64,000 bases of DNA from Bacteroidota bacterium (GTDB lineage: Bacteria > Bacteroidota > Ignavibacteria > UBA10030 > UBA8401): contig JAJYOI010000001.1 in the NCBI GenBank assembly GCA_021796275.1, positions 6,803 to 70,802 on the forward strand. Reading direction: 5' to 3'. The number at the start of each line of letters is the position of its first letter. Positions within the stretch are counted from its first letter, which is position 1. Shown in pieces: positions 1 to 59,842 of this stretch. A program made the position numbers and the translations under genes. The notes under the pieces were generated by a model. The model was not told the origin of the DNA, searched no databases, and saw only the letters and a list, made by a program, of their open reading frames with translations.

Positions 1-417
1 CCGCAGGAATTCCCCAGCCAAGCTCACTCGCACCGCTGCTCGCTGCCAAGGCGCCGAAGAAGACACTCCCTTCACTCGGCCGGCCGGCGGACGGTGAACT
101 TGAACTGCTTTGCGACGGCCCTGAAGATTGAGCAACTTCCGAATGAGTAAATTGAATCTGCCGCACCGAGGCTGCCGGGGTGTAGGTAACTTCTTTCGCC
201 AAATCGAACGACTTGACGAATCGCGGCGGCTGTGCTTCAAATTTGACCGGCGGCTTCACAACATCGTACGAGGGAAGTTCAACTGACACATACTTCACGC
301 CTTTTTCTTCGTGAGTTAGAAAATACGAAATGAAACCGACCACCACGTGCAACAGAAACGATGCGAGAAAAGCATAGCCTAAATTGCGCCGATAATTTTT
401 TCTCCACGACTGCAGCA
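1..417 (-). CDS. Partial membrane-anchored TonB-like protein. The N-terminus is inside the window and the C-terminus runs off the window start. It was not in the ORF track because no stop codon falls within the window.
   Basis: Manual translation of the minus strand from ATG 417-415 gives MLQSWRKNYRRNLGYAFLASFLLHVVVGFISYFLTHEEKGVKYVSVELPSYDVVKPPVKFEAQPPRF... This is a basic N-terminus, one TM helix, then a Pro/Ser-rich linker, which is the TonB-family architecture. The ATG overlaps the TAA stop of the upstream TPR gene (TAATG). The frame is open to position 1. Confidence 0.35.
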
Positions 418-3400
418 TTACTCTTTCTTTCCGCTTTCAATCCACCGTTTATGAAGCTCGGCAAAAAAAATCACTTCTTGCGCCGCCTGCGTGTCGGAGT
501 ATTTCGTGATAATGCGATTGAACATGGTCAGAGCTTTCGCTTTCTCGCCTAACTGTGAATATGCGGACGCAATGTTCGCCTCGCAGGCAAAGCGCACATC
601 TGCATCAGGGTATTTTTTCAGAACCGACTCCAGTTCTTGAATTGCCTTTCGGTAGTCTTTCGCATCGAAGGCCTGCATCGCGCGCTCATATTCTTTGTAG
701 GAATTAATCTGTGCAAGTTCATGAACCAAACCTTTGGCTTCTTCATACCGTGAATAGTCCGGGTACCGGGCCACAATCACTTGATAGGCATCTTTCGCTT
801 CTTCGTACTGCTGCGTATTGTAATAATAATCGCCGACGCTGAACTGAGCATCAGGCGCCTGTGCGCATTTCGGATACGCCGCAACAAAGCGCTTAAACGT
901 CTCTACCATCTGCAGCGTATCGCCGGAGCGATAGTAACACCACCCTTTGTTATACAGCGCGGACATGGCAAAATCGGATTGCGGGAATTCCTTTGCGGTA
1001 CGTTCGTATTCAGGGATGGCGCGTTCGAAACGGTTTGAATTATAATATGCTTCCGCAATTTGGTATTGCGCTTCAGCAGCACGCGGACTGGAAGAATATT
1101 TTTCAATGTAGCTCTTCAACAATGCAATGCCGTCGTCGGCTTTTCCGGATTGAATCAGGCTCATCGCACGGAAATAAAACGCATCCTGCGTTTTCACATT
1201 CGCCGGATATTTTTCAAGGAACGTACCAAAAAGTTTCTGCGCGCCGTCAAATGCCTGACCGTCATAAAACATGACTGCCATTTGGTACACAATGTCGGTG
1301 ATATATGGATGCGCTGGTAATCTGTCTGTGGCTTCCGTCAATGTCGCAACAACCTTGTCAAGCTCATTCTGGTTGCCGTATGCATTAGCAAGCGCAACGT
1401 ACGCCTTCGCACGCGAATTATCATCGGCACTGTCTGCATGAATCACTTTCGATGCGTTTTCAATAACGCGGGGAAAATCATTCAACTGCGCATAGATTTC
1501 AGTCAATGAAGAGAGGTACCGGATTCTTTCGCCGTTCGACGAAGCGGAGCCGAGAAGCCGGTTAATTCTATCGATGGCATCTTTCTTCTTTCCGATATCA
1601 AGATACGCAAGCGCGAGTTTTTCATTTGCAGCAGGAACCACAGTGCTGAAATTTTTTCGAAAAGCTTCCTGCTTCAGACAGAGTTCCAAATCGGCAATTG
1701 CCTCTTTACTTCTCTTCGCTTGCTGGTACAGAATGCCGCGCCCGTACAACGCCTGAAGCCGCGCATTCTCATTGATTGAAGTATCCCGGAGCACCAGAGA
1801 CATTTCGGAAAGCGCCTTATCATTTTTTTCCCACATTGCCAGCAGATCGCCGTATGCAAGATGAGCATATGCAGCATGTCCAAGCGAATCCGCTGTTCGC
1901 GAAGCAATGATGCCGGTAATGTATTTTTCTCCTTCTTCAAACTTTCCCTGTGCAATATAAATTTTTACAGACCGGGCGAAAGCGAAAGGATAATACTGAG
2001 ACACTGCGCTGACGGAGGTAAGCGATCGCAGCGAACTGTCAAGTTTCGACGCGAAGAAAAAAGACATCCCCAAATAATAGTAAGCCTCGTTCGTATCAAT
2101 CTTATCGGTCTGGGAAACAAGTAATCCTTGGTATTCATTGACCGCCTGATCATAGCGCTTTTCTTCGTAGAACGATTTTGCGAGCTGCAATCGCGCCTGA
2201 AGTGCTTCTTCCGAAGCCGGATACGCGGAAAACACATCGTGGTAGCATTGGCGAGCTTCAGCAAATTTTCCAAGATTCTGAAACGCCGTTCCCCGCATGA
2301 CCAACGCTTTGGCAGAAAATTCGCTGCCGGCGTGATTCGTCAGAAAAGAATCCGTTGAAGCGATTACATTGGGATAATCTTTCGCTGCATAATAGTTCAG
2401 GACAGCAAAGAACCGCCCGTTCTCTATAGAAAATTCCGCGGCTTCGGCAAACTCACCGTACGCCTTCACATAAAATTGATATTCCGCCGCCGCTTTCGCA
2501 AACGCATTGTTATCCTGGTACGTGCGCGCGATTTTATACTGCATGCGCGCTTGAAAAACTTTATTCTGAAAATTGTCGTCAATCGCTTTCCGATAAATTG
2601 CAATTGCATTGTCCAGTCCCTTCACACGTAACGTCAGCTCCGCCATTTTGATATACGAAATTTCAATGAGCGAAGGAAGAAGCGTGTACGTACGGATAAT
2701 ATAATGGTAGCGTGTCATCGCCGAATCGTATTGATTTAGTTGCTCAAACGCCTCGGCAATTTTGAATTCCGACTTTGAAGCGAGTTCAAGGTTCGTGTTG
2801 TCAGATTCGCGGTTCGACGCCGCATCGAAAATCTGCCTTTCGCGGTTAGCACGAAGTTCCATATTTTGAAAATCAGTCTTGCTGAACGATTCCGGTTTGT
2901 AGTCTGTAAGCAAGGCTTTGAATTCTGTCAGTGCAGCCTGCCACTGCTTCGTGTCCATGGCGTTCTGACCGATCTGGTACATTGCTCTGCCGCGAAGCGG
3001 GCCGCTTTTGAAATTATCTGCCAGGAAATGAAATGTAAGGGAAGAGCTGTCGTACTGTTCCATAAATCGGAATGCCCAGCCGATATCGTAGTACGCCTGT
3101 TCGACTTTTTCGTCGAAAGGATAACGAGCAATCAACTGACGCGCTTCTGTAACAGCACTGTCGTACTGTTTTTCGCTGAAGAAAATATCGTACACCTGAA
3201 ATTGTGAAAGAGCGAGCAGCGTTGGCGCATCATCGCGGGTTTGCACTAAACGGAACATTGCAATGGCAGAATCATTTTTTCCCATGTTGCGGAAAGCGTT
3301 TGCTTTTTGATACATCGAAGCTGTGCGTACGCCCACCGTTAATTCTCCATCAAGAAGCGTAACGTGAACGCTGTCTTCTTTAAGGAAATCGCTCTCTGTC

Positions 3401-3561
3401 CCCAGCACTTTGTCGTATTCTTCAATCGCCTTTGAGTAATTCCTCGCAGCGAAATAATTTTGGCCCGCGACGAATTGGAGGCGAAGTTCCTGAGGTGTCG
3501 GAACAAAATAACTCGCACTGCCTATTGAAAGAAGAATAAATACGATGACTTGTAATGACAT
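418..3561 (-). CDS. Large tetratricopeptide-repeat (TPR) protein of 1047 aa with an N-terminal signal/TM segment
   Basis: Long ORF with many degenerate 34-aa TPR-like repeats (recurrent A..Y..A/G, YY.LG, W..A patterns) and an N-terminal hydrophobic segment VIVFILLSIGSASYF. Confidence 0.75.
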   Translation of the reverse strand: MSLQVIVFILLSIGSASYFVPTPQELRLQFVAGQNYFAARNYSKAIEEYDKVLGTESDFLKEDSVHVTLLDGELTVGVRTASMYQKANAFRNMGKNDSAIAMFRLVQTRDDAPTLLALSQFQVYDIFFSEKQYDSAVTEARQLIARYPFDEKVEQAYYDIGWAFRFMEQYDSSSLTFHFLADNFKSGPLRGRAMYQIGQNAMDTKQWQAALTEFKALLTDYKPESFSKTDFQNMELRANRERQIFDAASNRESDNTNLELASKSEFKIAEAFEQLNQYDSAMTRYHYIIRTYTLLPSLIEISYIKMAELTLRVKGLDNAIAIYRKAIDDNFQNKVFQARMQYKIARTYQDNNAFAKAAAEYQFYVKAYGEFAEAAEFSIENGRFFAVLNYYAAKDYPNVIASTDSFLTNHAGSEFSAKALVMRGTAFQNLGKFAEARQCYHDVFSAYPASEEALQARLQLAKSFYEEKRYDQAVNEYQGLLVSQTDKIDTNEAYYYLGMSFFFASKLDSSLRSLTSVSAVSQYYPFAFARSVKIYIAQGKFEEGEKYITGIIASRTADSLGHAAYAHLAYGDLLAMWEKNDKALSEMSLVLRDTSINENARLQALYGRGILYQQAKRSKEAIADLELCLKQEAFRKNFSTVVPAANEKLALAYLDIGKKKDAIDRINRLLGSASSNGERIRYLSSLTEIYAQLNDFPRVIENASKVIHADSADDNSRAKAYVALANAYGNQNELDKVVATLTEATDRLPAHPYITDIVYQMAVMFYDGQAFDGAQKLFGTFLEKYPANVKTQDAFYFRAMSLIQSGKADDGIALLKSYIEKYSSSPRAAEAQYQIAEAYYNSNRFERAIPEYERTAKEFPQSDFAMSALYNKGWCYYRSGDTLQMVETFKRFVAAYPKCAQAPDAQFSVGDYYYNTQQYEEAKDAYQVIVARYPDYSRYEEAKGLVHELAQINSYKEYERAMQAFDAKDYRKAIQELESVLKKYPDADVRFACEANIASAYSQLGEKAKALTMFNRIITKYSDTQAAQEVIFFAELHKRWIESGKKE

Positions 3562-3600
3562 TGGAAATCAACTGCCTGTCAAATACTGCCGTGAAATCAA

Positions 3601-3630
3601 TAGCCAGCGGTACACATGCACCGCTGGCTA
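3601..3630 (-). terminator. Perfect 11-bp inverted repeat (tagccagcggt N8 accgctggcta) between the T9SS cargo gene and the TPR gene. It is a putative terminator or attenuator hairpin.
   Basis: The stem and loop are read directly from the sequence. A moderately U-rich tract (ttgatttca) follows on the minus strand. Confidence 0.35.
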
Positions 3631-3667
3631 GTCATACCGATGTGTTACCTACCTCTCTCGCCAGTCG

Positions 3668-6388
3668 TTATTTCAACAAAATCATTTTTTTAGTCGAGAC
3701 ATAATTATTGACGTTCACGCGGTACAGGTACACGCCGCTTGCAACAGCGCGCCCCTCGCTATTTCTGCCGTCCCACACAATACTGTAATTACCTGCATGA
3801 TAGTTGCTCGAAATCAATGTCTTTACTTCCCGTCCAAGAATATCGAACACTTGCAGTGTAACAAACCCGGAACTCGGCAGGGCAAAACGAATCTGCGTTG
3901 TCGGATTGAACGGATTTGGGAAATTCTGCGACAGATCATACTTATCCGGCAGCGACGGATTGACCTGATATTCGACCCCAGTGAACGGCTCAACAAGAAT
4001 AATCGCATCCGCACGAATGACAAAACTATCGCGCTGGGCAACATTGATCGTGTCCTTGTATACCGCGTTTACGAGCGCTGTATCATTCTGAACGCGGACA
4101 TAGCCATTGATAGCGCCGCCATTGTGAGCGTCGCGGGAATCTGAGCGCAGAAATTGTGCGGAACCGAGGAGCACTCGGCTTGAGGTTCGATTATTTTGAT
4201 TGATGATCGTGTCAATCGGTGTTCCTCCGCCGGCAGGAAAAATTGTGTACCGAACAGCAGGGGAAGAATTTGTTGAACCTACCGGCACCTGAGCATAAAC
4301 CCTGAATGTTTCAAGATACGGCGTTGCACCAGCGGGAACAGGAAGCTGCGGGAAATATTCAACATAGGCTGTGTGGTTCACCGCCGCATCGCCATCAAGA
4401 AAATAAATGTATCCGATCATTCTGCTTCCGCCGCTTGCAGCCTGATCACTGATCGTCTGCCATTTGTTAATATTGGCAAGGTCGGGATACACTGCCGGAC
4501 TAGCGGGATAGATGTACGCGCCTTGTGCATCGTTTTCTTCTACCGTCAAGTTCGTTCCAATGCCATTACCGCGCAATTGAATAACTGTCGGATTCCTGGT
4601 AGTATCGTTCGAATAGAGCAGCAATTGATCGGTCAATCCATTGGCAATCGTATCCGGAGCGAACATGAGCGTGAATAATTGTGTCCCGTTCACTGCAGCA
4701 AGTTCCAGAGGAAATGCCGGCGGATTCACCAGCGAGTAATATCTTCCCTTTGCAAATTTCACACTGTCAATCACCAGCTTTGATTCACCGCCGCTAATGA
4801 CTTGAATGTTCAATCTGTAATTATCGTCTTTTTGCCGCTGGAACTGATACACAGAGACATTCTGAAAATTAACATCGGTTGAAGCAACAATTGCCGGTCC
4901 CGTCGGGATTTTTCGAATGCGGAGAAGATCCGCGCGGATAACCGGTCCGCCACTTGGTGTCAATGGCCGGTAAAAATCAACAGTAGTAAAATCTCCTTGC
5001 GTAAGAAAGACAGGCTGACTCACCAATGGCACGAAAAATTTCGGCGTTCCGGTTTGTGTATCGTTTTGATTGAACGAAGCTTTAATAGTGTCTGTCGTAA
5101 ACGCCGGAAGAATAGATATTTGTGTATTCGGTTCAGAGTTCGACGAGAATGCTATCCATCCCCATTCAATAAAGTAATATCCCGACGATCCTTGTTTTCC
5201 ATTCAAACTGTCCGGCAATTGAAATTTGTATTCAACACCGGTCGCCGGCGTTACATCAGAAGAATATGTTCCATGTCTGTTACCGCTCGGAATGGGATAT
5301 GGGAATGCAGCGTACCCTGTCCCGCTTTCACTCCATGCCCCGAAAAAAGTGATCGTAGGACGGCGCGGATCGCCAAGCTTATCAAACGGTGCGTTATAAT
5401 GCGGTTCATTGCTCAAGCTTGCATTAAGAATGAAATTATAATTCACGCCATTTCCGCTGATGGGAATTGTTGCTTGCGGTTCTGCAGGATCGTTGCTTTC
5501 CACTACAAGCGTATCGCTCACCGATTCTTCTTCAAAAGGATGGAAACCGACCGCGATAATTCCTTTTTGTCCCGGATGGATTGTCATCGGGAAACTTCCA
5601 TCGCGCGGAACAATGCTCCAACGTGATTGCTTTACTACCGCATGAACACCCGTAACAATTAAATCTTGTGCGCCAAGATTGAACAAAGGAACTTCGTTAT
5701 ACGTCACGGTTCCGAGCGGAGCGTCTAACCATTGTTCTCCGACGCGAACTGAGTCAAAAGCATTTTTGTCTCTCCGTCCAAATTCTAAGTCAGGTCCGGT
5801 TGCAGTGCTGCGAAGCCAGCGAATTGCATCCGCGCGCATAATTGCAGTTCCGGAAAAAGTATCGGCGCCAACGGTAACAAATGTATTTCCCGGAAGCAGC
5901 GGAACTATCGTCAATGGAACCCACGCACCTGTTCCAACAGTTGTGCTGTAATTCAACGTCGACCGGCGCAAATCGTGCCGCACTGAATCGAGCATCGTCG
6001 TTTCAAATTCACGTTGAATGGTATAGTAAACATTTGATGCATTGTTTGCCGCCTGCAAGACGTAGGTGTAGAGAATGTAATTGCCGGACATTGTATCGGG
6101 AATTGTCGTTACCCACATCGCCGTTCTTCCGGAAATACTTTCACCGCCAAGCTGCGATGTCTGGCGGTAATCCAATCCCCACGCCAACGATGTAGCGCCG
6201 GTCCACCACGGCCCGACTTCCTTATAGGTTGGGGTATTAGCCGTTGAACCGGCAGTTTGGTTTGGAGCGTTGTCAACCGTGATGTAGTTTGCCGGGTTAA
6301 GCTTTTGCTGTGCCTGAGAAGGCATCACCGCAAACGCTACCATAACAAACGCCACCAACGACGTAAACAGATTGTAAAAATGCTTCAT
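3668..6388 (-). CDS. Secreted protein of about 907 aa with a C-terminal T9SS sorting domain (type A, Por_Secre_tail-like)
   Basis: The C-terminus LSQNFPNPFNPTTQIRFALPSSGFVTLQVFDILGREVKTLIS...WDGRNSEGRAVASGVYLYRVNV matches the T9SS CTD consensus. The N-terminal signal peptide MKHFYNLFTSLVAFVMVAFAVMPSQAQ starts at ATG 6388 with an upstream AAAGGAG RBS. The ORF-track start at 6472 is probably too far upstream. Confidence 0.75.
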   Translation of the reverse strand: MKHFYNLFTSLVAFVMVAFAVMPSQAQQKLNPANYITVDNAPNQTAGSTANTPTYKEVGPWWTGATSLAWGLDYRQTSQLGGESISGRTAMWVTTIPDTMSGNYILYTYVLQAANNASNVYYTIQREFETTMLDSVRHDLRRSTLNYSTTVGTGAWVPLTIVPLLPGNTFVTVGADTFSGTAIMRADAIRWLRSTATGPDLEFGRRDKNAFDSVRVGEQWLDAPLGTVTYNEVPLFNLGAQDLIVTGVHAVVKQSRWSIVPRDGSFPMTIHPGQKGIIAVGFHPFEEESVSDTLVVESNDPAEPQATIPISGNGVNYNFILNASLSNEPHYNAPFDKLGDPRRPTITFFGAWSESGTGYAAFPYPIPSGNRHGTYSSDVTPATGVEYKFQLPDSLNGKQGSSGYYFIEWGWIAFSSNSEPNTQISILPAFTTDTIKASFNQNDTQTGTPKFFVPLVSQPVFLTQGDFTTVDFYRPLTPSGGPVIRADLLRIRKIPTGPAIVASTDVNFQNVSVYQFQRQKDDNYRLNIQVISGGESKLVIDSVKFAKGRYYSLVNPPAFPLELAAVNGTQLFTLMFAPDTIANGLTDQLLLYSNDTTRNPTVIQLRGNGIGTNLTVEENDAQGAYIYPASPAVYPDLANINKWQTISDQAASGGSRMIGYIYFLDGDAAVNHTAYVEYFPQLPVPAGATPYLETFRVYAQVPVGSTNSSPAVRYTIFPAGGGTPIDTIINQNNRTSSRVLLGSAQFLRSDSRDAHNGGAINGYVRVQNDTALVNAVYKDTINVAQRDSFVIRADAIILVEPFTGVEYQVNPSLPDKYDLSQNFPNPFNPTTQIRFALPSSGFVTLQVFDILGREVKTLISSNYHAGNYSIVWDGRNSEGRAVASGVYLYRVNVNNYVSTKKMILLK

Positions 6389-6476
6389 AATATCTCTCCT
6401 TTTATTTATGGATGAGAATGAGTGTGGCATCTTCTCGCCGAAACACGGCTGGCGTGAACAGCCACGTTGCAATGGA

Positions 6477-6923
6477 TTAATTCTTCTTTATAGTTACAAT
6501 CACAATATCAGACGGTTTTCCTGTAAACTGAATTTTGTCGTGCGTGTAACCGGAAGGATACACTTTATACAAAACAACTACGCTATCGCGTGCACCTAGT
6601 TGAATCTCATTCGACGAATCACTGAACGTTGGGAAAAATGTTCTTCCGCGGGATTGAAAGAACGATGTATCATTAAAGCTGCGGAACACTTCCCAATCAC
6701 GAAGATTCGCTTGCTCACGGTCAGTACCGTATCGCACTGTGTCGTACGCCCACGTTAAAGTAATAAGCCTCTTATGCGATTGCGTACTGTCCAGTTGTGC
6801 CGAAAAATCAATCACATCTGGAACTCTGCCGTCGTGAGTATTCGGAATCAATCCGCGTTCCGGACCGCATCCCGCTGCAACCCACGAAAATGCTGCAAGA
6901 AAACACGTTTGCCAAAATTTCAT
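6477..6923 (-). CDS. Small lipoprotein, possibly with an FN3/Ig-like fold
   Basis: Signal peptide with lipobox MKFWQTCFLAAFSWVAAGC. The mature part is beta-rich (LITLTWAY...). Confidence 0.5.
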   Translation of the reverse strand: MKFWQTCFLAAFSWVAAGCGPERGLIPNTHDGRVPDVIDFSAQLDSTQSHKRLITLTWAYDTVRYGTDREQANLRDWEVFRSFNDTSFFQSRGRTFFPTFSDSSNEIQLGARDSVVVLYKVYPSGYTHDKIQFTGKPSDIVIVTIKKN

Positions 6924-6963
6924 ATGCAATTATATTCTATGATGATAGTTCAACAATTCTGAG

Positions 6964-7683
6964 CTACTTTCCTAACGGAATGGATAACGAAACCAGCGGT
7001 TGATGAATCCCTGCTGCCACACTATTTATGTTCACGCGTTCAGCAATCGAGGGAAATGAATTCACATCGTGAGAAAACATCCGCTGGCCATGATCTTCAG
7101 TATTCCAAATCACATCGGCAACATTCACTACCCAGATTACAGCCGACACTGCAAGAAAAATATTCCTACGGCGACGGTCAGTGACAAGCAGATTGTGTGC
7201 ATCAATCATCGATTGATAAACAGACTCCGAGTACGTCCAATTCGTAGAATTCTTGTACTGGAATTCCAACGCATCTAATCGTTCGCCGCGCGCAACATAA
7301 TTATTATGTGAGATCAATGCCGTGATCGCCGAACCGAACGCAAGCAGCGTGAACCCTGCGCCTTTATAGGTGTCACCAAGCATCGTTTGCCCTGCGCCGG
7401 GAATAAAGCAGGAATAAATAATTGCCGACGTTCTGCGCGACGAACTTTCGTCAGAGACTATCGCTGACGATTTCGAAGTGGATGCTGCCGAATCTTGCAC
7501 ATCGATGAAAGCGAATTGAAGCGATGCGACAACCTGCGGCGAAGGATCGGACCCATTGGCGGCGCTTTTCTTTCCGACTTCCGGTAAAGAAAATGCAGAC
7601 GATGCAGCCAATCCTATCAGCAAAAGAATGATGAGGGCAGAACGCCGATAATTAATTTTTGATTTTTTTCGATTCAAGTGCAT
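6964..7683 (-). CDS. Hypothetical membrane protein
   Basis: ORF with an N-terminal signal/TM (ALIILLLIGLAASSAFS) and two further hydrophobic segments (IPGAGQTMLGDTYKGAGFTLLAFGSAITALI; NIFLAVSAVIWVVNV). The start is taken at the internal Met MHLNRKK. It overlaps the upstream gene by about 30 nt. Confidence 0.45.
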   Translation of the reverse strand: MHLNRKKSKINYRRSALIILLLIGLAASSAFSLPEVGKKSAANGSDPSPQVVASLQFAFIDVQDSAASTSKSSAIVSDESSSRRTSAIIYSCFIPGAGQTMLGDTYKGAGFTLLAFGSAITALISHNNYVARGERLDALEFQYKNSTNWTYSESVYQSMIDAHNLLVTDRRRRNIFLAVSAVIWVVNVADVIWNTEDHGQRMFSHDVNSFPSIAERVNINSVAAGIHQPLVSLSIPLGK

Positions 7684-9169
7684 AATAAAAGATATTTGAG
7701 AGTAATTCACGTTGACGAGTAAAATCCTTTCCTGCGCGAACCTCAGCGGTATTGAACGCACCCCACGCTATCGAATAGCCGCGGTTTGAAACAACAGCAA
7801 CAAGGCGATTCTCGTAAAACATTCCTGAAAGAAAATCATAGATGACCCGTCCGTGCACATTCTGCAAATCGGGATCAACCGGGGGCAACACATCAAATCG
7901 TTTCCAGATGGAATAAATCGGATGGTCGCTGGGAATTCTGCTCGTTGAAACATTTTCTCCCAGCAAGGCGCCGACGTTCGTCAGAAAATTATTGATCGCC
8001 TGCCAATTCTCGCTCTGCGTTGATGTCGAGCGTTCATCGGCAATAATCATACCGCCGTTACGAATAAAATCCGCCGCGTTCTTTTCCTGTTCAGGCGAAA
8101 ACTTCATCTGTCCCTCATCGGCAAGAATCATCAGAACATTAGACGCTTTGAGTTCCGCCGGCAGAAGATTTGTTTTCAAAAAAGAGAGCTTGAAGTTAGT
8201 CGTTTCTGCAAGGTAATCTTCAAGCGGTTTCATCAATTGTTCTGCGGGAAGCACATTCGTTGTACGAACAGCGAGCTTAATTTCTCCGGTAGGGCGGGCA
8301 TTCGGATCAAGCTGCGAGATTTTTCCGCGGCTGCCAGCCGACAAACTGTCCGTTCTTCCCGCCACGTATCCTTGTTGGGCATTGGGCGGTGTAAACGGAA
8401 CCCGTTTAAAAAAGAATGTCAGGTTCACAAATTCTGACGGCTGATTATTTTCATCATAACCGACAATAAAATTTTTCAGGTCGAGTTTCACTTGCTCCAC
8501 TTCATCGGTCAACGGATCGAACACAATCAATCCATCGCGGACATCGCCGCGAAAAACAGGCTTTCCCAAATAATGCACTGTCCGCCGAACAATCCCCATC
8601 CGGCTCTCAAAGACATCATCGTCAACTCCGGATGTTCCCTTAAGTTTTTTAAAATAATTTTCAAGACTATGGTATCGGCTGTTCTTTTCTTCTCGCCCAT
8701 AACTGTACAGAAAATCGCCGCGGTCGCTTGTGAGAAAACAGCTTTCAGGATCAAGATTGATTTTTGAGCCGGCATAATTGTACACTGTAATTTTAAAGAC
8801 CATGAAACGCTGCGGTGTGTACCCCAACACCGGGTCCACCCAATTTCCATACGTGAACGGATTCGTGGAGTATTGACCGGCCTGTGATTCCTGCGGAAAC
8901 TCAACATTGTTCAACTGATAATCGGTCATGTACTTCACTTCGACTTTGAAATCTTTCCGGTCATAAATAGCCGTCAGCCTATCGGAGCTGAGCCGGTACG
9001 AAGAATCATTCAAAGCGTTCATGAATGTTTCATTAGGAACCAATGTGTACTCGATTCGCTGCGGCGGAAACACAACATAATGGTACACCGGATCGCATCC
9101 GCCAAAAGTTGCCGTGAGAAAAAAAACGGCGGCTATAAAGACAAACGCTATGATGTTTCTACGGTACAC
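7652..9169 (-). CDS. Hypothetical exported or membrane-anchored protein of 505 aa. The C-terminal half may be glutamine-amidotransferase-like (DUF4159/ThuA-like).
   Basis: N-terminal TM IIAFVFIAAVFFLTATFGGC. C-terminal motif LMILADEGQMKFSPEQEKNAADFIRNGGMIIADE. The domain assignment is tentative. Confidence 0.5.
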   Translation of the reverse strand: MYRRNIIAFVFIAAVFFLTATFGGCDPVYHYVVFPPQRIEYTLVPNETFMNALNDSSYRLSSDRLTAIYDRKDFKVEVKYMTDYQLNNVEFPQESQAGQYSTNPFTYGNWVDPVLGYTPQRFMVFKITVYNYAGSKINLDPESCFLTSDRGDFLYSYGREEKNSRYHSLENYFKKLKGTSGVDDDVFESRMGIVRRTVHYLGKPVFRGDVRDGLIVFDPLTDEVEQVKLDLKNFIVGYDENNQPSEFVNLTFFFKRVPFTPPNAQQGYVAGRTDSLSAGSRGKISQLDPNARPTGEIKLAVRTTNVLPAEQLMKPLEDYLAETTNFKLSFLKTNLLPAELKASNVLMILADEGQMKFSPEQEKNAADFIRNGGMIIADERSTSTQSENWQAINNFLTNVGALLGENVSTSRIPSDHPIYSIWKRFDVLPPVDPDLQNVHGRVIYDFLSGMFYENRLVAVVSNRGYSIAWGAFNTAEVRAGKDFTRQRELLSNIFYYALESKKIKN

Positions 9170-9171
9170 TC

Positions 9172-12100
9172 TTAATATCCCGCGAAGATGGTAAAATAGA
9201 TCAGCGAAAACTGCGTGTTATTTATTTTATCAACGGGGCGCTGATAATTGTAGTCTGTAATCTTATAGCCGAAATCGATCACGATATTGTAACCGCTGTA
9301 TTGAGCTTTGTTTGTCATTGAAATCGCTGTCGTGGAAGCATTCACGTCGCCGACGCCGTCGCGCAAAAAGCGGTTCTTGACAAGAAGCGCATCAGTGAGA
9401 CCGAACAGGCCTGTTCCCTGAACTCCGAAATGAAGTTCTGTATTATTCGTTAAACGATAATCAACGCGAAGTATCGGGATCAGCGATTGCGTGTGCGCCA
9501 TGATCGTTGTCGAGGTTGAATTGTCGTCATAAACATTTGTCGACACAACCTTCAATGTCCGGATTTTGAACTGCGGACGAAATTGCAAACGATTCTCAAG
9601 TATTGAATATGTGTAGTCAATTTTGTTGACAAGTCCAAGCGAAGTGATTTCGCCGGCAAACTGTTCGTCAACAAGCGGCCCGAATTGAAGTTCCGCCAAT
9701 GTCGGCGCACCGACAACATACCTTTTGTTGGATTCAAACCGAATATTGTTTTCGATGTTCAAATTAGGAATTTGCGTGTACCGCGTTCCGACGTACACTG
9801 TATGAGAAAGGCTATTGCGGTACAAAAGCGGATCAATGACGTACTGCGGGGTCGGGTCATTCGATATCACTCCGCTGAATTGATATCCGTCATTCCGGAT
9901 ATTATCATGAACACGTTTGAGAGTGTAATAGAGATCCACACTTCCCAATCGTGGAGTAGATACGTTGTATGTCGCCTTAAAATAATTCACGTCGCTTTCT
10001 CCACCGCGTGCTAATGCCGTTTCACGAATGAAGCCGATAGCAAGCTGCATGTTCCGCATCGCTTCAAGCAAAGCAAATGCATGGTAGCCGTCGGCGTCGG
10101 GATTATAGGGGTAATCCGGATAGATGTCGTTTTCCTGATCGTCAATGACGCTGTTATTGTTCCAATCGTCCCCGGCTTCAAAAGCAGGTGGGTCGCTGTA
10201 GTACGTCAAGAAATCTTCAGTATAATCCGGCAGACCATTCGAGTTGCGGTCATCGTCCGGAATGCCGTCATGATCTTTGTCTTTCCCGGGAAAAATTCCC
10301 GCGTCGGGTTTGCGGATGATATCGTTCAAGCCGGTAAGCTCATTCACATTTTCACGGTAGCCCAATAAAAATGGATCAGGTTTTGAATTCAGCACATCGG
10401 TATTTCGCGGAAACGATGTGTTTGCCGTTGCATTATAAAAATAGAAGCCATCCTCCCACCGGTCATTGTCATCATTGTCGTCAACAAGATCATAGTTGGC
10501 ACCGCCGGCAAGCAAATTATCTGTTGTTACTTTTGAAATATCATCTGTGCTGTAACCGATTGCATCCGGCGGATTATACACAATCGAACCATCTTGGGCA
10601 AAGCTGCTGTAATAACTGTTTTCCAATGTGTAGAGATTCAGCGATGTGCTGTACCACGGCTCGATACGGTACCGTTCTCCGCCCAGCGTCAACCTCCCAA
10701 TTTTTTTTGTGCCGCGAAAGTAAAACGCTGTACCATCCTTTTCATTCCACGGCGCCGCTAAGAGCGGATATTTACTGTAGGTAGCACTGCGGTCAAATTC
10801 TCCTTCTACGTTAAAGCCATTCCAATCGAACTTAAAGTTCATTCCATAGACGGCCATACCGGTAGTCAAACCGTAGGTATAAGAAACCCACCGCTTGTTC
10901 GAAGCATCCTGCACATTTCCCATTGCACGCTCGACCGGAAAGAACGGTGTCGGTGTTCCGACAATTGTCGTATCCCAGTGATTCGGATACCGTGGATCGT
11001 TTGGAGAATCCGGATACTTATCTGATACAAGCACCCAGTCATGTGCCGCATCCATTGCATAATCGTTCGCAAGCAAAAACGAAACCGATACCGATTGCGT
11101 CCCATACGGCATGATGAAAGCATAAACAAGATTTGAGTTCCCTTTTAATTCCGTAGGGTACTGCGGCGGCGGCACAACTGCACCGTCCTTCATTGTGAAC
11201 TGCGTACGATAATTATCGTAGTTTGTGAAATTCTTGTAAATAGTTTGACCAGAAACCGGATCGGTAACACCGGTATTGACACCTTTTCCCGGAACATAAA
11301 TCTGAGAACTGAAACCGAAATCTTTGAAGACCCAATATTGAATCGGGTTGTTCAAATTCGTATTGAGTTGGCTGGGTACATCTCCGTTAATATTGACAAT
11401 CGCGCGTTGAACACCATTCACAACAATTTTTGGTTGAGCATAAATAATCGGGCCGGATTTATCAAGCGGAGAATCGTCACGGACACGGATGAAAATGACG
11501 CGCGGAATTGCGTCTGCTACAACGCCTTTGAGTGAAGCATTCTTGCTGTCAATGCTCGAGTGCCGTTGATTTTGATTCACGTACGTTGCACCGACGGTCA
11601 GCATATCGCCAAAGTCCGTTTCAAAATGTCCGCCGAACAAATACGTCGCCCAATCCCGCGGCCGGGCAATGGAATTCGGCAAACTCGATGCGTCAAAACG
11701 AATGCGGACAGGATCGGATTCACGCGAGACAAGAATTGTTCCGCGATATTTTTCTGTCGCGCCGTCCCACCGCATGCCGTTGAATCGTGCCTTGTCAAGC
11801 GTAAGCGAAGTGAACTTTGTGCGGATCGCCTCGCCCAACATAATGCGTGAATTAAACCCGCCGTATGCGTCGTTTCCAATTACCAAATTATTGAACCACA
11901 AATTATAGTACTTTGATTTCTGTACGTCACTTCCGCCAAGTACCGGATTAATGAATTCGCTTTGCGATTCATTCAATTCATAAATTGACAGCCCGTCGAC
12001 CAAAAAATTTCCGAAATTATCATAAATTTTTCTTTTATTGAACTGAATGCTGTAGTTCTCGTAATTGCGTCCGGAATAATTTGAATATCCTTCATCGCCT

Positions 12101-12189
12101 TTGATCTCGTCCCGGTTAATAAATTGCGCATAAAAAACATCAGTGCAGCTAAAAAACAGTATCAGCACAGACAGTAACTTACGATTCAC
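9172..12189 (-). CDS. Large outer-membrane protein of 1005 aa with Asp-rich calcium-binding (thrombospondin type-3-like) loops
   Basis: Signal peptide MNRKLLSVLILFFSCTDVFYAQ. DKDHDGIPDDDRNSNGLPDY...DDQENDIYPDYPYNPDADG matches the DxDxDGxxDxxD pattern. The C-terminal strands end in an aromatic residue (..FTIFAGY), which is typical of OM beta-barrels. Confidence 0.55.
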   Translation of the reverse strand: MNRKLLSVLILFFSCTDVFYAQFINRDEIKGDEGYSNYSGRNYENYSIQFNKRKIYDNFGNFLVDGLSIYELNESQSEFINPVLGGSDVQKSKYYNLWFNNLVIGNDAYGGFNSRIMLGEAIRTKFTSLTLDKARFNGMRWDGATEKYRGTILVSRESDPVRIRFDASSLPNSIARPRDWATYLFGGHFETDFGDMLTVGATYVNQNQRHSSIDSKNASLKGVVADAIPRVIFIRVRDDSPLDKSGPIIYAQPKIVVNGVQRAIVNINGDVPSQLNTNLNNPIQYWVFKDFGFSSQIYVPGKGVNTGVTDPVSGQTIYKNFTNYDNYRTQFTMKDGAVVPPPQYPTELKGNSNLVYAFIMPYGTQSVSVSFLLANDYAMDAAHDWVLVSDKYPDSPNDPRYPNHWDTTIVGTPTPFFPVERAMGNVQDASNKRWVSYTYGLTTGMAVYGMNFKFDWNGFNVEGEFDRSATYSKYPLLAAPWNEKDGTAFYFRGTKKIGRLTLGGERYRIEPWYSTSLNLYTLENSYYSSFAQDGSIVYNPPDAIGYSTDDISKVTTDNLLAGGANYDLVDDNDDNDRWEDGFYFYNATANTSFPRNTDVLNSKPDPFLLGYRENVNELTGLNDIIRKPDAGIFPGKDKDHDGIPDDDRNSNGLPDYTEDFLTYYSDPPAFEAGDDWNNNSVIDDQENDIYPDYPYNPDADGYHAFALLEAMRNMQLAIGFIRETALARGGESDVNYFKATYNVSTPRLGSVDLYYTLKRVHDNIRNDGYQFSGVISNDPTPQYVIDPLLYRNSLSHTVYVGTRYTQIPNLNIENNIRFESNKRYVVGAPTLAELQFGPLVDEQFAGEITSLGLVNKIDYTYSILENRLQFRPQFKIRTLKVVSTNVYDDNSTSTTIMAHTQSLIPILRVDYRLTNNTELHFGVQGTGLFGLTDALLVKNRFLRDGVGDVNASTTAISMTNKAQYSGYNIVIDFGYKITDYNYQRPVDKINNTQFSLIYFTIFAGY

Positions 12190-12203
12190 TCTGCACTCCG
12201 AAA

Positions 12204-13184
12204 TCAGTTAAAAACATAGCCTAATGAAAGAGAACTAATACCGCCAACATTCCCCACCATCGCCTGGTATGAAAATGAATAGTCAATCGTAACATTTCCG
12301 ATGACAATGCCAAAACCGGCGTCGTACTCGCCTTGCGAATTTGCCGCAGTTAATCTGCCGCCGCCCGCGCGCACCAAAAATGCGGCAGCCGAGCCGAGCA
12401 CGGTCGTTTTCAAACCGATAAATTCCGCACCGCCGCCGACACGAATATCTTTTCCCTTCACAGTAATGCCCGCAGTAGCTGAATAGTCATACACGCGGGA
12501 AATATAGGAAGCTCCCGCACTCAACTCCGCGGGAAGTTTTGCATCGCTTGATCCGTTTGAGGCGACAGATGGTTGTGTGAAATTCAAGACCGACGCACCA
12601 ATTTGAATGTCGTTGCCTTTGAAAATATCTTTGAACGAATAAATTGCGCCGACATCGAAAGAAAATCCGAGATATGAAAGCGCATCCTCTGGAACCGCAT
12701 TTTCGCCTTGCGGCGCAAGTGCGCTCCACCGAAGCATTTTCACGCTGCCGCCAACGGACAATTGACCGTCGAACATTTGACGCGCAAAGGTACCGACAGC
12801 CATATTTTCCGACCAGCCTGCGGGAGCAAACTGAGTCACGCCGATTCCTATAACGCCAAGATCACTCACAGGATAATCGCCGGCAAACGAAAAGAAATTC
12901 AGGTTGGCATCGGCGATATTCGGATACAGATTTGTATATGAGGTGAAGAGCTTCAGCGAGCGGCCGAAGCCTATACCGGCAGGATTATAAAAAATAAGTG
13001 AGGGATCATCAGAGAGTGAAACAGCGGCACGCCCAAGCGAAGTGATCTTTGCACTGTATCCCTTATCAACAAATGCTTGTGCGTATGCAGTGTCCCGCTC
13101 TGATATGATCAACAATGAGAAAGAAAGAAAAATCTTCAGTAGCAAAGTTCTCACATGTATGCTTTCGTTAGTAAGCAACAACAA
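12204..13184 (-). CDS. FadL-superfamily outer-membrane beta-barrel. It is probably the PorP/SprF-family T9SS partner of the adjacent type-B CTD cargo.
   Basis: About 300 aa with a signal peptide. N-terminal hatch motif GRAAVSLSDDPSLIFYNPAGIGF (the G.A...DD....NPAG motif shared by FadL, PorV and PorP/SprF). Gly/Ala-rich amphipathic strands. It overlaps the 3' end of the upstream cargo gene by 17 nt. Confidence 0.5.
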   Translation of the reverse strand: MLLLTNESIHVRTLLLKIFLSFSLLIISERDTAYAQAFVDKGYSAKITSLGRAAVSLSDDPSLIFYNPAGIGFGRSLKLFTSYTNLYPNIADANLNFFSFAGDYPVSDLGVIGIGVTQFAPAGWSENMAVGTFARQMFDGQLSVGGSVKMLRWSALAPQGENAVPEDALSYLGFSFDVGAIYSFKDIFKGNDIQIGASVLNFTQPSVASNGSSDAKLPAELSAGASYISRVYDYSATAGITVKGKDIRVGGGAEFIGLKTTVLGSAAAFLVRAGGGRLTAANSQGEYDAGFGIVIGNVTIDYSFSYQAMVGNVGGISSLSLGYVFN

Positions 13185-14919
13185 CTGTTTTCGTTACAAA
13201 TTCTCCCCCGTTATCAACATTTACGGCGAGCTGAATAATATACACGCCCGGCAAAACCAGCTTGCCATTATCATTCCTCCCATCCCATAAAAATCCTTTT
13301 CCTCCGCTTCGTGGATCGCCAAAATATGGATTTGCTGCCGACGGCATCGAAACAACCGTTCTGATTTTTTTGCCGGTTAAATCGTAAATGGAAATTGACA
13401 ACGTTTTAGGCGTTTCAACATTAGCCACAGAAAAATCAATAATCGTGGCATCATTTTTTCCATCACCATTAGGAGTGAACGGATTAGGATCTATTTGAAC
13501 ATCAACCAGAACATTTTCAGGCACTCCGTTTGTCGTTACCGACCAACCATCGCCGGTTGCGGTTCGATGAGGATCGACAAACTGAGGGTTCCATGAAGCA
13601 TTTTTGCTGACGATCTCAGCGGGAAAATCGGCGCCTTCAATTAGTTTTGTAGTGAATGTAATATCGATTGTCGAAGATGTAACTATTGTCTGCGGGAACC
13701 CAATTGTCATTTGGTCGGGAGCGGGGAGAAAAGTATAAGAGATTGGAACTCCATCAGAAGAAACGGAACGAACCACTGCCGGACCCGGACTTCTAATTTT
13801 TACTGTATCCAGTCCAAGTGAGCTATGCGAAAAGTACGCCGCAATAGAATATTTCAACGTCACTGGGCTTAGCACGGGAACATCGGACGGAGTAATAAAC
13901 GCAACAGTCGAATCCGCAATCAGATTTTTTTGATAGACAAACTTTACGCCTTTCACTTTCGGCGTACCTAAATCTGACGTGAAAAGATGAAGGCGGTATT
14001 GAAAATTTCTCCTCGGCTCTTTGACATCAAGGAGCGTTCCTTTTTCGGCTTCTTCAGCCGAAAAGAATTCGACCGGCGTTGACCAGGCAGACCAAGTTGT
14101 GTCAGCAGCCGGTGTGTTCCCGGTGCGCATCTCAATTGAAACCGATGTTGCATTATCAAAATCAGCGTCAACATAAACCTGCCCGAAATTCACTGCTGCA
14201 CCAAGCGAGGTATCAATCGCAGAAGTGTACGTTCCCTCCGAAACATATCCTTCCCCGAAAATCCTGATTTCGGAAATAACGGTATAATCCGTGAGAGTCT
14301 GTTTATCCAAGACAAAAACAAGGTAACGCGCAATGACGGGCTGTGAAAGATAGGCAGTATGAATAGAATCCTGGTTATCGAGTTCCTGATAAATTTTTGT
14401 AAGACTATTAGAATCCACCCCGGCATAATAAGAAAATGCGAGCGGGCGTTGTTTCTTTGACGAACCGAACCCGCCCAAATCTGCCACCTGAATTCGATTA
14501 ATACGGCGAATCGCCTGCAAGTCAATTGTAATGAAAGAACCAACATTGCCCGGCGGCAGCGATACGATGGAAAAAAGATTGTTGTCACGCAATTTGTTCG
14601 CATTCATTTTCGCTGTGTCGGGAACCGTCGTGTTGGGAATTGGACCATTAGTTTGCGGAATAGGGCCGATATAGGTTATCGAGAAGCGGGCATCGAGCGC
14701 CAGGTTTTTTGTGTCGCCGCTTGCGAGAACAATGGCATGCGGCACCGCACCCAAGTCAACATCCGCAGTTTGCTGTATATCCCGCTTGGTAGAGTCTGAA
14801 AAATCCGTTATCGAATAAACGAGAGAATCAGAGGAACTTGTAACTTCGGGTAACTGCGAGTATAAACTTAGAGGAAAAATAACCGAGGTGACAAAGAAGA
14901 GATAAAATATTTTTCTCAT
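13168..14919 (-). CDS. Secreted adhesin-like protein with a type-B T9SS C-terminal domain (gliding-motility-associated / SprB-type CTD)
   Basis: The C-terminus VQIDPNPFTPNGDGKNDATIIDF...YDLTGKKIRTV...FLWDGRNDNGKLVLPGVYIIQL carries the NPFTPNGDGKND signature. The signal peptide MRKIFYLFFVTSVIFPLSLYSQ starts at ATG 14919. The ORF-track start at 14994 is likely too long. Confidence 0.7.
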   Translation of the reverse strand: MRKIFYLFFVTSVIFPLSLYSQLPEVTSSSDSLVYSITDFSDSTKRDIQQTADVDLGAVPHAIVLASGDTKNLALDARFSITYIGPIPQTNGPIPNTTVPDTAKMNANKLRDNNLFSIVSLPPGNVGSFITIDLQAIRRINRIQVADLGGFGSSKKQRPLAFSYYAGVDSNSLTKIYQELDNQDSIHTAYLSQPVIARYLVFVLDKQTLTDYTVISEIRIFGEGYVSEGTYTSAIDTSLGAAVNFGQVYVDADFDNATSVSIEMRTGNTPAADTTWSAWSTPVEFFSAEEAEKGTLLDVKEPRRNFQYRLHLFTSDLGTPKVKGVKFVYQKNLIADSTVAFITPSDVPVLSPVTLKYSIAAYFSHSSLGLDTVKIRSPGPAVVRSVSSDGVPISYTFLPAPDQMTIGFPQTIVTSSTIDITFTTKLIEGADFPAEIVSKNASWNPQFVDPHRTATGDGWSVTTNGVPENVLVDVQIDPNPFTPNGDGKNDATIIDFSVANVETPKTLSISIYDLTGKKIRTVVSMPSAANPYFGDPRSGGKGFLWDGRNDNGKLVLPGVYIIQLAVNVDNGGEFVTKTVVVAY

Positions 14920-14972
14920 GAATACTGCATATTGTATCGAAGGTTTGTTAGAAGGGTAAACTAACCGCAGTG

Positions 14973-15001
14973 AATATACAAGATATTGCCCCAATTGTCA
15001 A
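14973..15001 (-). promoter_or_regulatory. Sigma-70-type promoter (TTGACA-N17-TATATT) driving the T9SS-cargo/OM operon
   Basis: On the minus strand, TTGACA is the reverse complement of 14996-15001 and TATATT is the reverse complement of 14973-14978, with a spacer of exactly 17 nt. It sits about 50 nt upstream of ATG 14919. Confidence 0.5.
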
Positions 15002-15012
15002 TATATTGCCAA

Positions 15013-15612
15013 CTAATTCCTATACAACCGATGTTCCATGATATACTCTTCCACAGAAGTAGGAACGAGATAACGAATTGATCGGTGCGCTTTCACTGAG
15101 GCGCGAATTTCCGATGACGATATTTCAATATCTGGAACATCAACAAAAATTGCAGACGAAGAAAATGGAAGCTGCTGCTGATTGTGTTGATATGAAGCGC
15201 GATTCATAACAATAAGCTTTGCCTGTTCTACAATTCGTTCTGGAAATTTCCATGTCCGAAATTCAATGAAGTTATCCATCCCGATCAAAAAAAATAATAA
15301 GTCGTTCGTGTGCTCGGCGCGAAGCGCTTCGACAGTTTCAAAAGTGTAAGATGTCCCTTTCCGCTTCAGTTCAATATCGGAAACTGTGAAATGGGAATTA
15401 TCCTTAATTGCAAGTCTAACCATTTCCAACCGCGCTCGTGCATCTTTTTCTTCCCCCGCTTGTTTATGTGGTGAAATGAAAGATGGAATAAAAATAATTT
15501 TGTCCAAGCCGGCCCTTTCGCGAACATGCTCAGCAACAATCAAATGGCCGTAATGCGGCGGATTGAATGTTCCGCCAAAAATTCCAATGTTCATTTTTTT
15601 CTTATCGTTCAT
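15013..15612 (-). CDS. nadD: Nicotinate-nucleotide adenylyltransferase
   Basis: IGIFGGTFNPPHYGHL (H/TxGH) motif, typical NadD length, SxxxxR-like C-terminal region. Confidence 0.9.
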   Translation of the reverse strand: MNDKKKMNIGIFGGTFNPPHYGHLIVAEHVRERAGLDKIIFIPSFISPHKQAGEEKDARARLEMVRLAIKDNSHFTVSDIELKRKGTSYTFETVEALRAEHTNDLLFFLIGMDNFIEFRTWKFPERIVEQAKLIVMNRASYQHNQQQLPFSSSAIFVDVPDIEISSSEIRASVKAHRSIRYLVPTSVEEYIMEHRLYRN

Positions 15613-16717
15613 TTTTTCCCATCACTTTTTCATAAATTTCCATTGTCTTTTGCGCAGTCGTTCGCCACGAAAAAAGCCGGGAACGCTCTCTCCCTTTCTC
15701 AATCATGTTTTTCCTTAAATCTGGTTCTCGCAATAAACAAACGATCGCATCTGCAAATTCATCAACATTCCCCGACTCGCAAATCATCGCCGCATTCCCT
15801 ACGACTTCCGGCAATGATGCAGCCTTCGAAATAACAACCGGAATTCCGCATGCCATCGCTTCCAACGCGGGCAAACCAAATCCTTCATATAGCGACGGAA
15901 GCACAAGCATCTCTGCCGCGTTGTATGCAAGCATAACGTCATCATCAGCAAGCCGGCCGAGAGTTTTTATTCTTCCCGAAATTTCAGAGACACCGGTGTT
16001 CAGCCAATCCACACCTTCATGATTCAATGTTCCACCTACAATTACAAGGTCAATATCGGGAAAAATGCGAAGGGCTTTTTTGAATGCATCAAGCAATACT
16101 TCCAGCCCTTTGTGAGGTTTGGTGTTGCCGACAAAAAGAACGTACGGCCGTTCAAGTTGAAACCTCGATCTAAAATCCTCAGCTTCAGAAGAAGTATGTT
16201 TTTGACGAAATCGCTCCGACACACCGAGATGAATTGGTACAATCTTTTCTTCCCGCACCCGGAATGAGCGGAGAATATCGTGCTTTGTAAACTCGGAATC
16301 TGTTATGATATATTGAGCATCACGGACTGCGTGAAGAATCATTCCGTAAGAATACGCCCGCTGAAAGGAAGAAAATAATTCCGGAAATCGTAAATGAATA
16401 AGATCGTGGATTGTTACCACCGCTCTCTCCTTCAATCCAAAGGGAAGCGTATAATGCGGCGCATGGAAAACCGAGACATCATTTACTGCAGCCCTTCTGC
16501 CGAATAGAAAAATCTCGCTCACTGAATACTTGCCATATCGTACAACAGATGTTGTCCATCCGTCAGGAATAGAAAGTTTTTCTTCATCCTCCGGCGAGAC
16601 AAAAAGAAGAAACTCGTGCCCGGATTGAATCAAAGGCAATTCTTCAACAAGATGTCTGATATACGTCCCAATCCCGAAGTCATAATATTTTCTTGCGTCA
16701 ATTGCGATACGGCTCAT
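15602..16717 (-). CDS. Glycosyltransferase family 4 (GT-B fold)
   Basis: EX7E-type motif region [18 protein letters not shown]. Start at Met [10 protein letters not shown] (ATG 16717). Overlaps nadD by 11 nt. Confidence 0.8.
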
Positions 16718-16721
16718 AGTA

Positions 16722-17546: not shown

Positions 17547-17549
17547 GTT

Positions 17550-18581: not shown

Positions 18582-18584
18582 CAG

Positions 18585-20493: not shown

Positions 20494-20503
20494 AATGTGC
20501 CAT

Positions 20504-59797: not shown

Positions 59798-59842
59798 TTT
59801 TTTCTCCTGAAACTCGATGAACGATGATTTTGGATGTGATTG

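Follow-up and report, generated by a model that had tools for sequence, protein, structure and literature searches.

What kind of surface structure is encoded by the genes packed on the minus strand between positions 3668 and 14994 of this stretch of Ignavibacteria DNA, and is it a passive set of cargo and anchor proteins or an energised machine? In the window, by which we mean the whole 64-kb stretch, an earlier note had recognized here a seven-gene type IX secretion system (T9SS) surface operon, bracketed by two proteins with C-terminal sorting domains (CTDs). The cluster genes are called g1 to g9 below, and related loci compared with them carry L-numbers. The explanation that we favour, with a probability of about 45%, is that the seven genes make up the end nearest the promoter of an envelope cluster of nine or more genes, which would form an energised trans-envelope module, coupled to the proton-motive force, that displays or secretes CTD proteins. 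It is suggested by the invariant pairing of a CTD protein with a giant outer-membrane (OM) barrel, together with the recurrence of tetratricopeptide-repeat (TPR) proteins, TonB-like anchors and a TolQR-type motor. The unit includes a TPR protein of about 1040 aa and TonB-like DUF4159 proteins, joined in most relatives by TolQ/TolR-like motor genes, and these point to an energised machine and away from the cargo-plus-anchor set that had been supposed.

The recurrence of these genes across phyla carries most of the argument. A genome scan with a profile of g3, the giant barrel, placed loci in Ignavibacteria, Kryptonia, KSB1, Zhuqueibacterota, Latescibacterota and Gemmatimonadota, and a separate homologue search added a g3 homologue from Zixibacteria. 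In 72 of the 83 non-redundant loci, the barrel gene or genes have directly 5′ of them a gene whose product aligns, by its C-terminus, with the extreme C-terminal end of g1; among the loci, TPR, DUF4159 and motor genes and the N-terminal domain of g4 recur. Judged from these gene orders, the invariant core is a type-B-like CTD protein followed by the g3-type giant barrel. Latescibacterota genomes often hold several loci, with two or three barrel genes in tandem. The cluster is also carried by a metagenome-assembled genome of Ignavibacterium album (L012) and by complete Latescibacterota and Gemmatimonadota chromosomes, OZ247580.1 being an example. In L001, a relative at 70% identity, the seven genes keep their order, as do all nine cluster genes, and the upstream flanks differ. 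In the more distant Ignavibacteria (L005 and L013–L019) and in L003 of KSB1, the cluster is rearranged and fuller: an F5/8 type C CTD protein, small barrel, giant barrel, TPR protein, MotA/ExbB (TolQ), ExbD (TolR), two DUF4159 proteins, a DUF5683 protein, a small lipoprotein and a CTD protein. Homology searches with all the cluster genes returned mostly Ignavibacteriales, and one Ignavibacteriales metagenome-assembled genome (GCA_027371395.1, contig DAHXNC010000093.1) is 100% identical to window positions 1–19088.

Is the segment one transcription unit, and where does it end? Every open reading frame (ORF) between 3668 and 14994 lies on the minus strand, back to back, which confirms the co-directional arrangement described before; all cluster features given below are likewise on the minus strand. 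With revised starts, the distances between successive genes from g1 to g7 are −17, 14, 2, −32, 40 and 88 nt. The limit of 46 nt stated in the note therefore holds for five junctions but not for that between g6 and g7, where the revised start of g7 leaves 88 nt. The near-consensus promoter at 14973–15001, of sigma-70 type (TTGACA-N17-TATATT), is also borne out; it matches at 11 of 12 positions, is the top promoter-like site in the first 16 kb, and stands 12 nt past the stop codon of nadD and about 47 nt 5′ of the ATG of g1. At the equivalent position in L001, L010 and L011, 5′ of the g1 orthologue, stands a TTGC(A/T)T-N17-TATATT motif, and its retention there despite differing upstream genes argues for function. 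Probably the seven genes are transcribed as one unit from this promoter. What stands of the unit first proposed is a surface or envelope module bracketed by two CTD proteins; its limit at 3668 does not, as the cluster continues into g8 and g9. Between g7 and g8 lies a GC-rich hairpin of 13 bp followed by TTGATTT (3601–3630), a possible terminator or attenuator and the strongest terminator-like site in 16 kb. Such sites number 17 where 18.3 would be expected, which is no enrichment, and this one alone falls outside coding sequence.

The giant barrel g3 (9172–12189; 1005 aa) belongs to an undescribed family with 927 representatives at 50% identity (E ≤ 1e-3). Its AlphaFold2 model, built with 53 homologues, has a predicted local distance difference test score (pLDDT) of 82.6 and a predicted template-modelling score of 0.80, and shows a β-barrel of about 30 strands, in agreement with the outer-membrane protein proposed from the sequence. 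Two inserts interrupt the barrel, one at about residues 240–360 and the other, conserved, Asp-rich and Ca-binding-like, at about 528–698. Residues 568–701, which rank with the best-conserved stretches of the family, hold LVDDNDDNDR followed by the loops DKDHDGIPD, DRNSNGLPD and DDWNNNSVID, of the types DxDxDG, DxNxNG and DxNxNxxID. The loops that had been called thrombospondin-3-like are thus present and highly conserved, but no thrombospondin type-3 family was matched; calcium binding is suggested at the level of the motifs. Residues 22–50 are disordered in the model (pLDDT below 50) yet contain a NY(S/A)GRNYENYS motif conserved across phyla, and this N-terminal segment could be a TonB-box-like docking peptide. 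No Pfam or NCBIfam family, Plug and TonB_dep_Rec included, is matched by g3, and its profile found no meaningful match among PDB sequences. The nearest solved folds are SlpA and MtrB, with 9–12% identity and TM-scores of at most 0.22.

The partner of the barrel in the core, g1 (13168–14919), is a secreted protein composed of a signal peptide, an F5/8 type C (discoidin) domain (28.9 bits), a conserved middle part and a C-terminal CHU_C/FlgD-Ig-like domain of type-B-like character. The signal peptide and the orthologues place its start at the ATG at 14919. The lengths of 608 and 934 aa first reported for g1 and g7 are those of the maximal ORFs, and signal peptides and orthologues reduce them to 583 and 906 aa, respectively. 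The type-B CTD ascribed to g1 stays below the curated cut-offs in g1 itself, where CHU_C (PF13585) scores 26.0 against 27 and TIGR04131 scores 21.3 against 35, spanning profile positions 4–44 only. Among 43 g1-family proteins encoded upstream of the barrel, 35 match CHU_C (E ≤ 1e-3, best 3.5e-10), and the same number match FlgD_ig; F5/8 type C is found in 28, a NedA-like galactose-binding domain in 23, TIGR04131 (type B) in 19 and TIGR04183 (type A) in five. At the other end of the operon, g7 (3668–6472, probably 906 aa from 6388) was correctly credited with a classical type-A CTD, since it passes TIGR04183 with 42.4 bits against 23, with PF18962 at 26.9 against 27. It also contains a HYDIN/VesB-type immunoglobulin-like (Ig) domain (34.9 bits) and an FlgD_ig match (37.8 bits), and its orthologue in L006 is called as 906 aa. 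Four operon proteins have signal peptides of the signal-peptidase-I type (9172–12189, 12204–13184, 13168–14919 and 3668–6388), and all four have Gln at the predicted cleavage site (..YSQ, ..AYAQ, ..FYAQ and ..SQAQQ). In g3 this residue, Q22, is at least 90% conserved among the 53 homologues, KSB1 and Zixibacteria included. On these grounds, the "Bacteroidetes Q-rule" for signal-peptide cleavage sites (PMC5837995) may reach beyond Bacteroidota for the g3 family.

Which of the two barrels is the cognate partner of the CTD protein? The small one, g2 (12204–13184; about 316–326 aa), is by its profile scores a FadL-like OM barrel of the PorV/PorQ/PorP superfamily, and its start overlaps or abuts the stop codon of g1. 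A small barrel gene also lies directly 3′ of the type-B-like CTD gene in L001, L003, L005 and L009–L019. The earlier assignment as a PorP/SprF-like barrel following type-B cargo holds for the FadL-type fold and for the position next to g1. An assignment to that family cannot be made, as g2 falls between the models for PorV/PorQ and for PorP/SprF: it just passes PF11751 (22.6 against 22.3), fails TIGR03519 by far (20.7 against 90.55), and reaches its highest score among the PorV and PorP models with the PorV/PorQ model NF033709, which it still fails (57.9 against 90). The orthologues in L003 and L005 come closer to this last cut-off, with 66.9 and 87.0, respectively. PF11751 is found in many homologues of g2, and NCBI names some of them PorP/SprF; a search of PDB sequences with g2 gave no PorV match at E ≤ 1 and no meaningful match. 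Barrels of the g2 type are confined to the loci of Ignavibacteria, Kryptonia, KSB1 and Zhuqueibacterota and are absent from those of Latescibacterota and Gemmatimonadota. Across phyla, the constant partner of the g1-type CTD protein is the giant barrel g3 and not the small one.

On the periplasmic side, the cluster continues with g8 (418–3561), a TPR protein of 1047 aa that has a signal peptide or anchor and numerous repeats of the YbgF/BamD type. It scores 199 bits with TIGR02795, 146 bits with BamD and 100.1 bits with PorW/SprE (NF052312, cut-off 250), the last through TPR stretches only, and its N-terminus has no Cys lipobox. We considered g8 as PorW/SprE or as BamD/YbgF proper and rejected both, because the scores arise from repeated TPR stretches in a protein of 1047 aa. 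A TPR gene lies directly 3′ of the giant barrel gene in L003, L005 and many further loci. The start of g9 overlaps the stop codon of g8 by 1 nt, and the gene runs off the window, which holds its first 139 codons (1–418). Full-length g9 in L006 has 465 aa, with a transmembrane (TM) helix containing SxxxH (ASFLLH), a Pro/Lys-rich linker and a DUF4159 head. The copy in the window has ASFLLHVVVGF followed by VKPPVKFEAQPPRFVK, so that it shares with TonB and TolA both the SxxxH TM helix and the Pro/Lys-rich linker. Of about 24 membrane-anchored family members, drawn from four phyla, 18 have SxxxH within their TM helix, and the motif corresponds to the conserved Ser/His (SHLS) motor-binding motif described for TonB and TolA (PMC12204202). 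Neither full-length g9 of L006 nor the first DUF4159 protein of L005 (DUF4159a) matches any NCBIfam model, and both end in DUF4159, not in TonB_C or TolA_C.

A second DUF4159 protein is g4 (7652–9169), a lipoprotein with the lipobox FGGC, an Ig-like β-sandwich at about residues 35–260, a linker and a C-terminal DUF4159 domain that is GATase1/ThuA/GIFT-like. The DUF4159-like character noticed in this 505-aa protein is confirmed by both score (PF13709, 32.7 bits against 25.9) and Hoch_4089 fold. Its N-terminal domain is a separate gene in KSB1, and Latescibacterota-type genomes have it joined to a TonB_C or AgmX/PglI C-terminal domain; TonB_C (PF03544/TIGR01352) occurs only in these fusions. The motor genes of relatives score best with TolQ (98.7 bits against a cut-off of 221) and TolR (68.1 against 127).

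How might the parts work together? In the energised module that we propose, g1, with its discoidin and type-B-like domains, would be exported by Sec and then delivered to the cell surface, its delivery and retention depending on cognate OM partners, the small barrel g2 and the barrel g3 of about 30 strands. The Ca-binding-like insert of g3 may be its plug or gate. On the periplasmic side, the TPR protein g8, the lipoprotein g4 with its Ig-like and DUF4159 domains, and the TonB-like g9 anchored in the inner membrane (IM) would link the barrel to a 5:2 proton motor of the TolQ/TolR type, which most relatives encode within the cluster and which in this genome would be encoded beyond the 64-kb window. 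A second surface cargo would be g7, the type-A CTD protein. Gene content and domain assignments, the synteny across phyla, the barrel fold of g3 and the SxxxH anchors are shown here. The direction of transport, namely export or display and not import, as well as the contacts between the parts and the use of the proton-motive force, is what we infer from this arrangement.

Several observations weigh against this proposal. No TolQ/TolR or ExbB/ExbD was found in the window, either by tblastn with the motor proteins of the cluster or by Pfam on its 35 ORFs, and the closest orthologous locus, L001, has no motor genes beside it. The hairpin at 3601–3630 may uncouple the transcription of g8 and g9 from that of g1 to g7. 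The CTD of g1 and the barrel g2 score under most curated family cut-offs. At TM-scores as low as those of g3, its likeness to the solved barrels is only generic, and the role of conduit or anchor is assigned to it from adjacency alone. Discoidin domains and TonB-like parts would be in keeping with an uptake system too. No experiment or publication on any cluster member was found. The literature on DUF4159, on T9SS in Ignavibacteria and on TolQR/TPR systems gave no description of the cluster, of the g3 family or of a role for DUF4159; the genome paper of Ignavibacterium album held nothing relevant to the cluster, and that of Melioribacter roseus notes only carbohydrate-active enzymes carrying the Por sorting domain.

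Could the same genes instead serve a canonical T9SS encoded elsewhere? As its accessory operon, they would send g1 through SprA/GldKLMN and anchor it by a PorP/SprF-like g2, g7 would be secreted and linked to lipopolysaccharide by PorU/PorV, and g3 to g6 would be accessory surface-structure proteins. The TIGR04183 score of g7, the CHU_C and TIGR04131 matches of the g1 family, and the PF11751 matches and PorP/SprF names among g2 homologues are all in line with this. So are the pattern, known from Bacteroidota, in which a PorP-like gene comes right after a type-B CTD gene (PMC9143113), the many TIGR04183 proteins in Ignavibacteria and Kryptonia (PMC3534657, PMC4737851) and BLAST hints of a T9SS in Ignavibacteriae (PMC5837995). 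However, Pfam detected no T9SS core gene, be it gldK/L/M/N, sprA/sov, porU, porV, sprE or sprT, among the 35 window ORFs, eight cluster ORFs being scanned with NCBIfam as well; g2 fails TIGR03519 and scores higher with the PorV/PorQ model; the CTD protein pairs with g3 even in Latescibacterota and Gemmatimonadota, which do without g2; and the conserved TPR, TolQR and TonB-like DUF4159 genes would be left unexplained. We regard an accessory operon as somewhat unlikely. Unlikely, too, is that the cluster is by itself an autonomous machine, driven by the proton-motive force, for secreting and anchoring CTD proteins in Ignavibacteria, KSB1, Latescibacterota and Gemmatimonadota, that is, a functional analogue of the T9SS. 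In such a machine g3 would stand for SprA, TolQR for GldLM, the DUF4159-headed TonB-like proteins for the GldM/PorM shaft and the giant TPR protein for PorW/PorK-N.

Import is the other function to which these parts might lend themselves. In a nutrient uptake system of the SusCD/TonB kind, g3 would be an energised import channel opened by the DUF4159/TonB_C proteins with TolQR/ExbBD, and g1 a surface glycan binder. This would account for the frequency of F5/8 type C and NedA-like galactose-binding domains in the g1 family, for the TonB-type anchors and TonB_C fusions, for the conserved disordered N-terminal motif of g3, which could act like a TonB box, and for the several paralogous g1-like/g3-like pairs within single Latescibacterota genomes, which resemble polysaccharide utilization loci. 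The cellulose-induced TPR-ExbB-ExbD-TonB cluster of Fibrobacter (PMC6851124) also speaks for it. Yet g3 has about 30 strands against 22 and no Plug or TonB_dep_Rec match, g1 bears a sorting CTD and not a SusD-like lipoprotein signal, and neither glycoside hydrolases nor IM sugar transporters consistently adjoin the loci, which makes uptake quite unlikely in our view. We consider highly improbable that the barrel, a CpoB/YbgF-like TPR protein and a TolQR-type motor stabilise or constrict the OM as a Tol-Pal-like or SlpA-like tether, with the CTD proteins as bystanders. The YbgF/CpoB- and BamD-type repeats of the TPR protein and the best scores of the motor genes, as TolQ and TolR, would suit a tether, and SlpA, the nearest solved barrel, is itself an OM-to-peptidoglycan tether. 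No SLH, OmpA_C, Pal or TolB domain, however, occurs in any cluster protein examined, many copies are present per genome in Latescibacterota, and the giant barrel is coupled to a CTD surface protein across loci. Nor do the motors qualify as Tol-Pal, since TolQ and TolR of relatives stay below the equivalog cut-offs and no TolB or Pal domains lie in the loci; a point in favour is that classical Tol-Pal is missing in Bacteroidota (PMC12204202).

If an energised trans-envelope module is what the cluster encodes, why would it matter? Genomes of Ignavibacteria, Kryptonia and neighbouring phyla each encode hundreds of CTD-tagged proteins, many of which are enzymes that degrade polysaccharides. Descriptions of the T9SS usually confine it to Bacteroidetes, and to our knowledge the machinery that secretes and anchors CTD proteins in these groups has never been defined. 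The cluster offers a testable parts list for a motor-coupled OM module tied to such proteins: two barrels, one from a new giant family and the other PorV/PorP-like, together with a giant TPR protein and DUF4159-headed TonB-like anchors. It gives DUF4159 and DUF5683 a first functional context and extends the proposal that TolQR-type motors power many undiscovered trans-envelope systems. The autonomous machine, if true, would explain how CTD-rich phyla could manage the export of these proteins without a canonical T9SS.

The two remaining operon genes agree with their first description. The 265-aa membrane protein g5 (6964–7761, start probably at 7683) has two hydrophobic segments, matches DUF5683 (31 bits against 26.7) and is syntenic in L001, L005, L016 and L019. 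The lipoprotein g6 (6477–6929), described as 150 aa and here about 148 aa, has the lipobox VAAGC, no family match in Pfam or NCBIfam, and a likewise placed orthologue in both L001 and L005. The gene that follows g9, lying just past window position 1 and seen in L006 at 20112–21437, encodes an 888-aa protein with Amidase_2, Big_5 and Por_Secre_tail domains, a CTD-tagged peptidoglycan amidase that is also the neighbour in L001. In the distant locus L008 (12968–16715), two FGE-sulfatase-domain proteins lie between two copies of the g1/g3-type module; the fold family is that of GldK/PorK and GldJ, and the adjacency is possibly a coincidence. The genes directly 5′ of nadD and the operon (15602–22048, minus strand), four for glycosyltransferases and one for a Polysacc_synt/MatE-type flippase, make up a surface-polysaccharide locus, whose synteny with the cluster does not extend to L001. 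Further along the minus strand, a 1226-aa protein (40481–44161) has only a weak match to an alpha-amylase catalytic domain (33.7 bits), and a DUF5723 protein (483 aa, 100 bits) stands beside a 743-aa ORF without Pfam match (58346–62074), a gene pair that is probably envelope-associated.

How does the cluster compare with systems already known? Like the SprB/SprF pairs of Flavobacterium and the PG1035/PorP pair of Porphyromonas, it has a CHU_C-type CTD gene directly 5′ of a gene for a FadL-like barrel of about 310 aa, and in some genomes several paralogous pairs. It departs from them in that g2 fails the PorP/SprF NCBIfam model, in that the barrel of about 1000 aa is the invariant partner and takes the place of the small barrel in other phyla, and in having TPR, TolQR and TonB-like genes of its own in hosts largely outside the classical Bacteroidia. 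Its parts are analogous to those of the core T9SS (SprA/Sov, PorV, PorW/SprE and GldLM/PorLM): a giant barrel in the OM and another that is PorV-like, a large TPR protein, an anchor that spans the periplasm, cargo tagged with CTDs and, in relatives, a proton motor of the 5:2 type. In contrast to that system, g8 has no lipobox and reaches 100 bits where PorW requires 250, the motor is TolQR-like and not GldLM, and no PorK/N-like genes were seen. The Agl-Glt gliding and Nfs spore-coat machineries of Myxococcus resemble the cluster in their TolQ/TolR-type motor, TonB-like IM anchors, several TPR proteins and OM barrels. The AgmX/PglI domain NF033768 scores 45–57 bits against 40 in P0200, P0203, P0204 and P0207, which are not window proteins but Latescibacterota-type proteins with the g4 N-terminal domain. 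Unlike Agl-Glt, the cluster has no GltG equivalog (NF033760, 25–32 bits against 650, over the C-terminal domain only) and no listed sub-cutoff NCBIfam match to other Glt components, and it has CTD proteins and DUF4159 heads. Of the families that define the T9SS and Agl-Glt/Nfs, only the CTDs are found here.

Among solved barrels, Deinococcus SlpA and Shewanella MtrB are nearest to g3. SlpA_C (PF21620, cut-off 35) is not matched by g3, and some homologues match it weakly, with 20.9–35.0 over about 90 residues. In MtrB, the barrel forms a sheath around a partner protein. Unlike these two, g3 has neither SLH nor coiled-coil regions and no cytochrome partners. In gene content alone, the cluster can be likened to FSU_2396–2403 of Fibrobacter succinogenes, a cluster of the Fibrobacterota-Chlorobiota-Bacteroidota group with large TPR and ExbBD/TonB genes in the order OmpA, TPR, TPR, ExbB, ExbD, ExbD and TonB, which has been connected with multiprotein complexes of the surface on cellulose (PMC6851124); neither a g3-type barrel nor a DUF4159 protein is reported for it. 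TPR-TolQ-TolR clusters with vWA-headed TonB-like proteins were proposed in 2025 as new force transducers, their function being unknown (PMC12204202). The cluster described here differs from them in its DUF4159 head, which is GATase1/GIFT-like, in its giant OM barrel and CTD proteins, and in the phyla that carry it. By analogy, the DUF4159-headed proteins look like a further variant of these vWA-headed force transducers.

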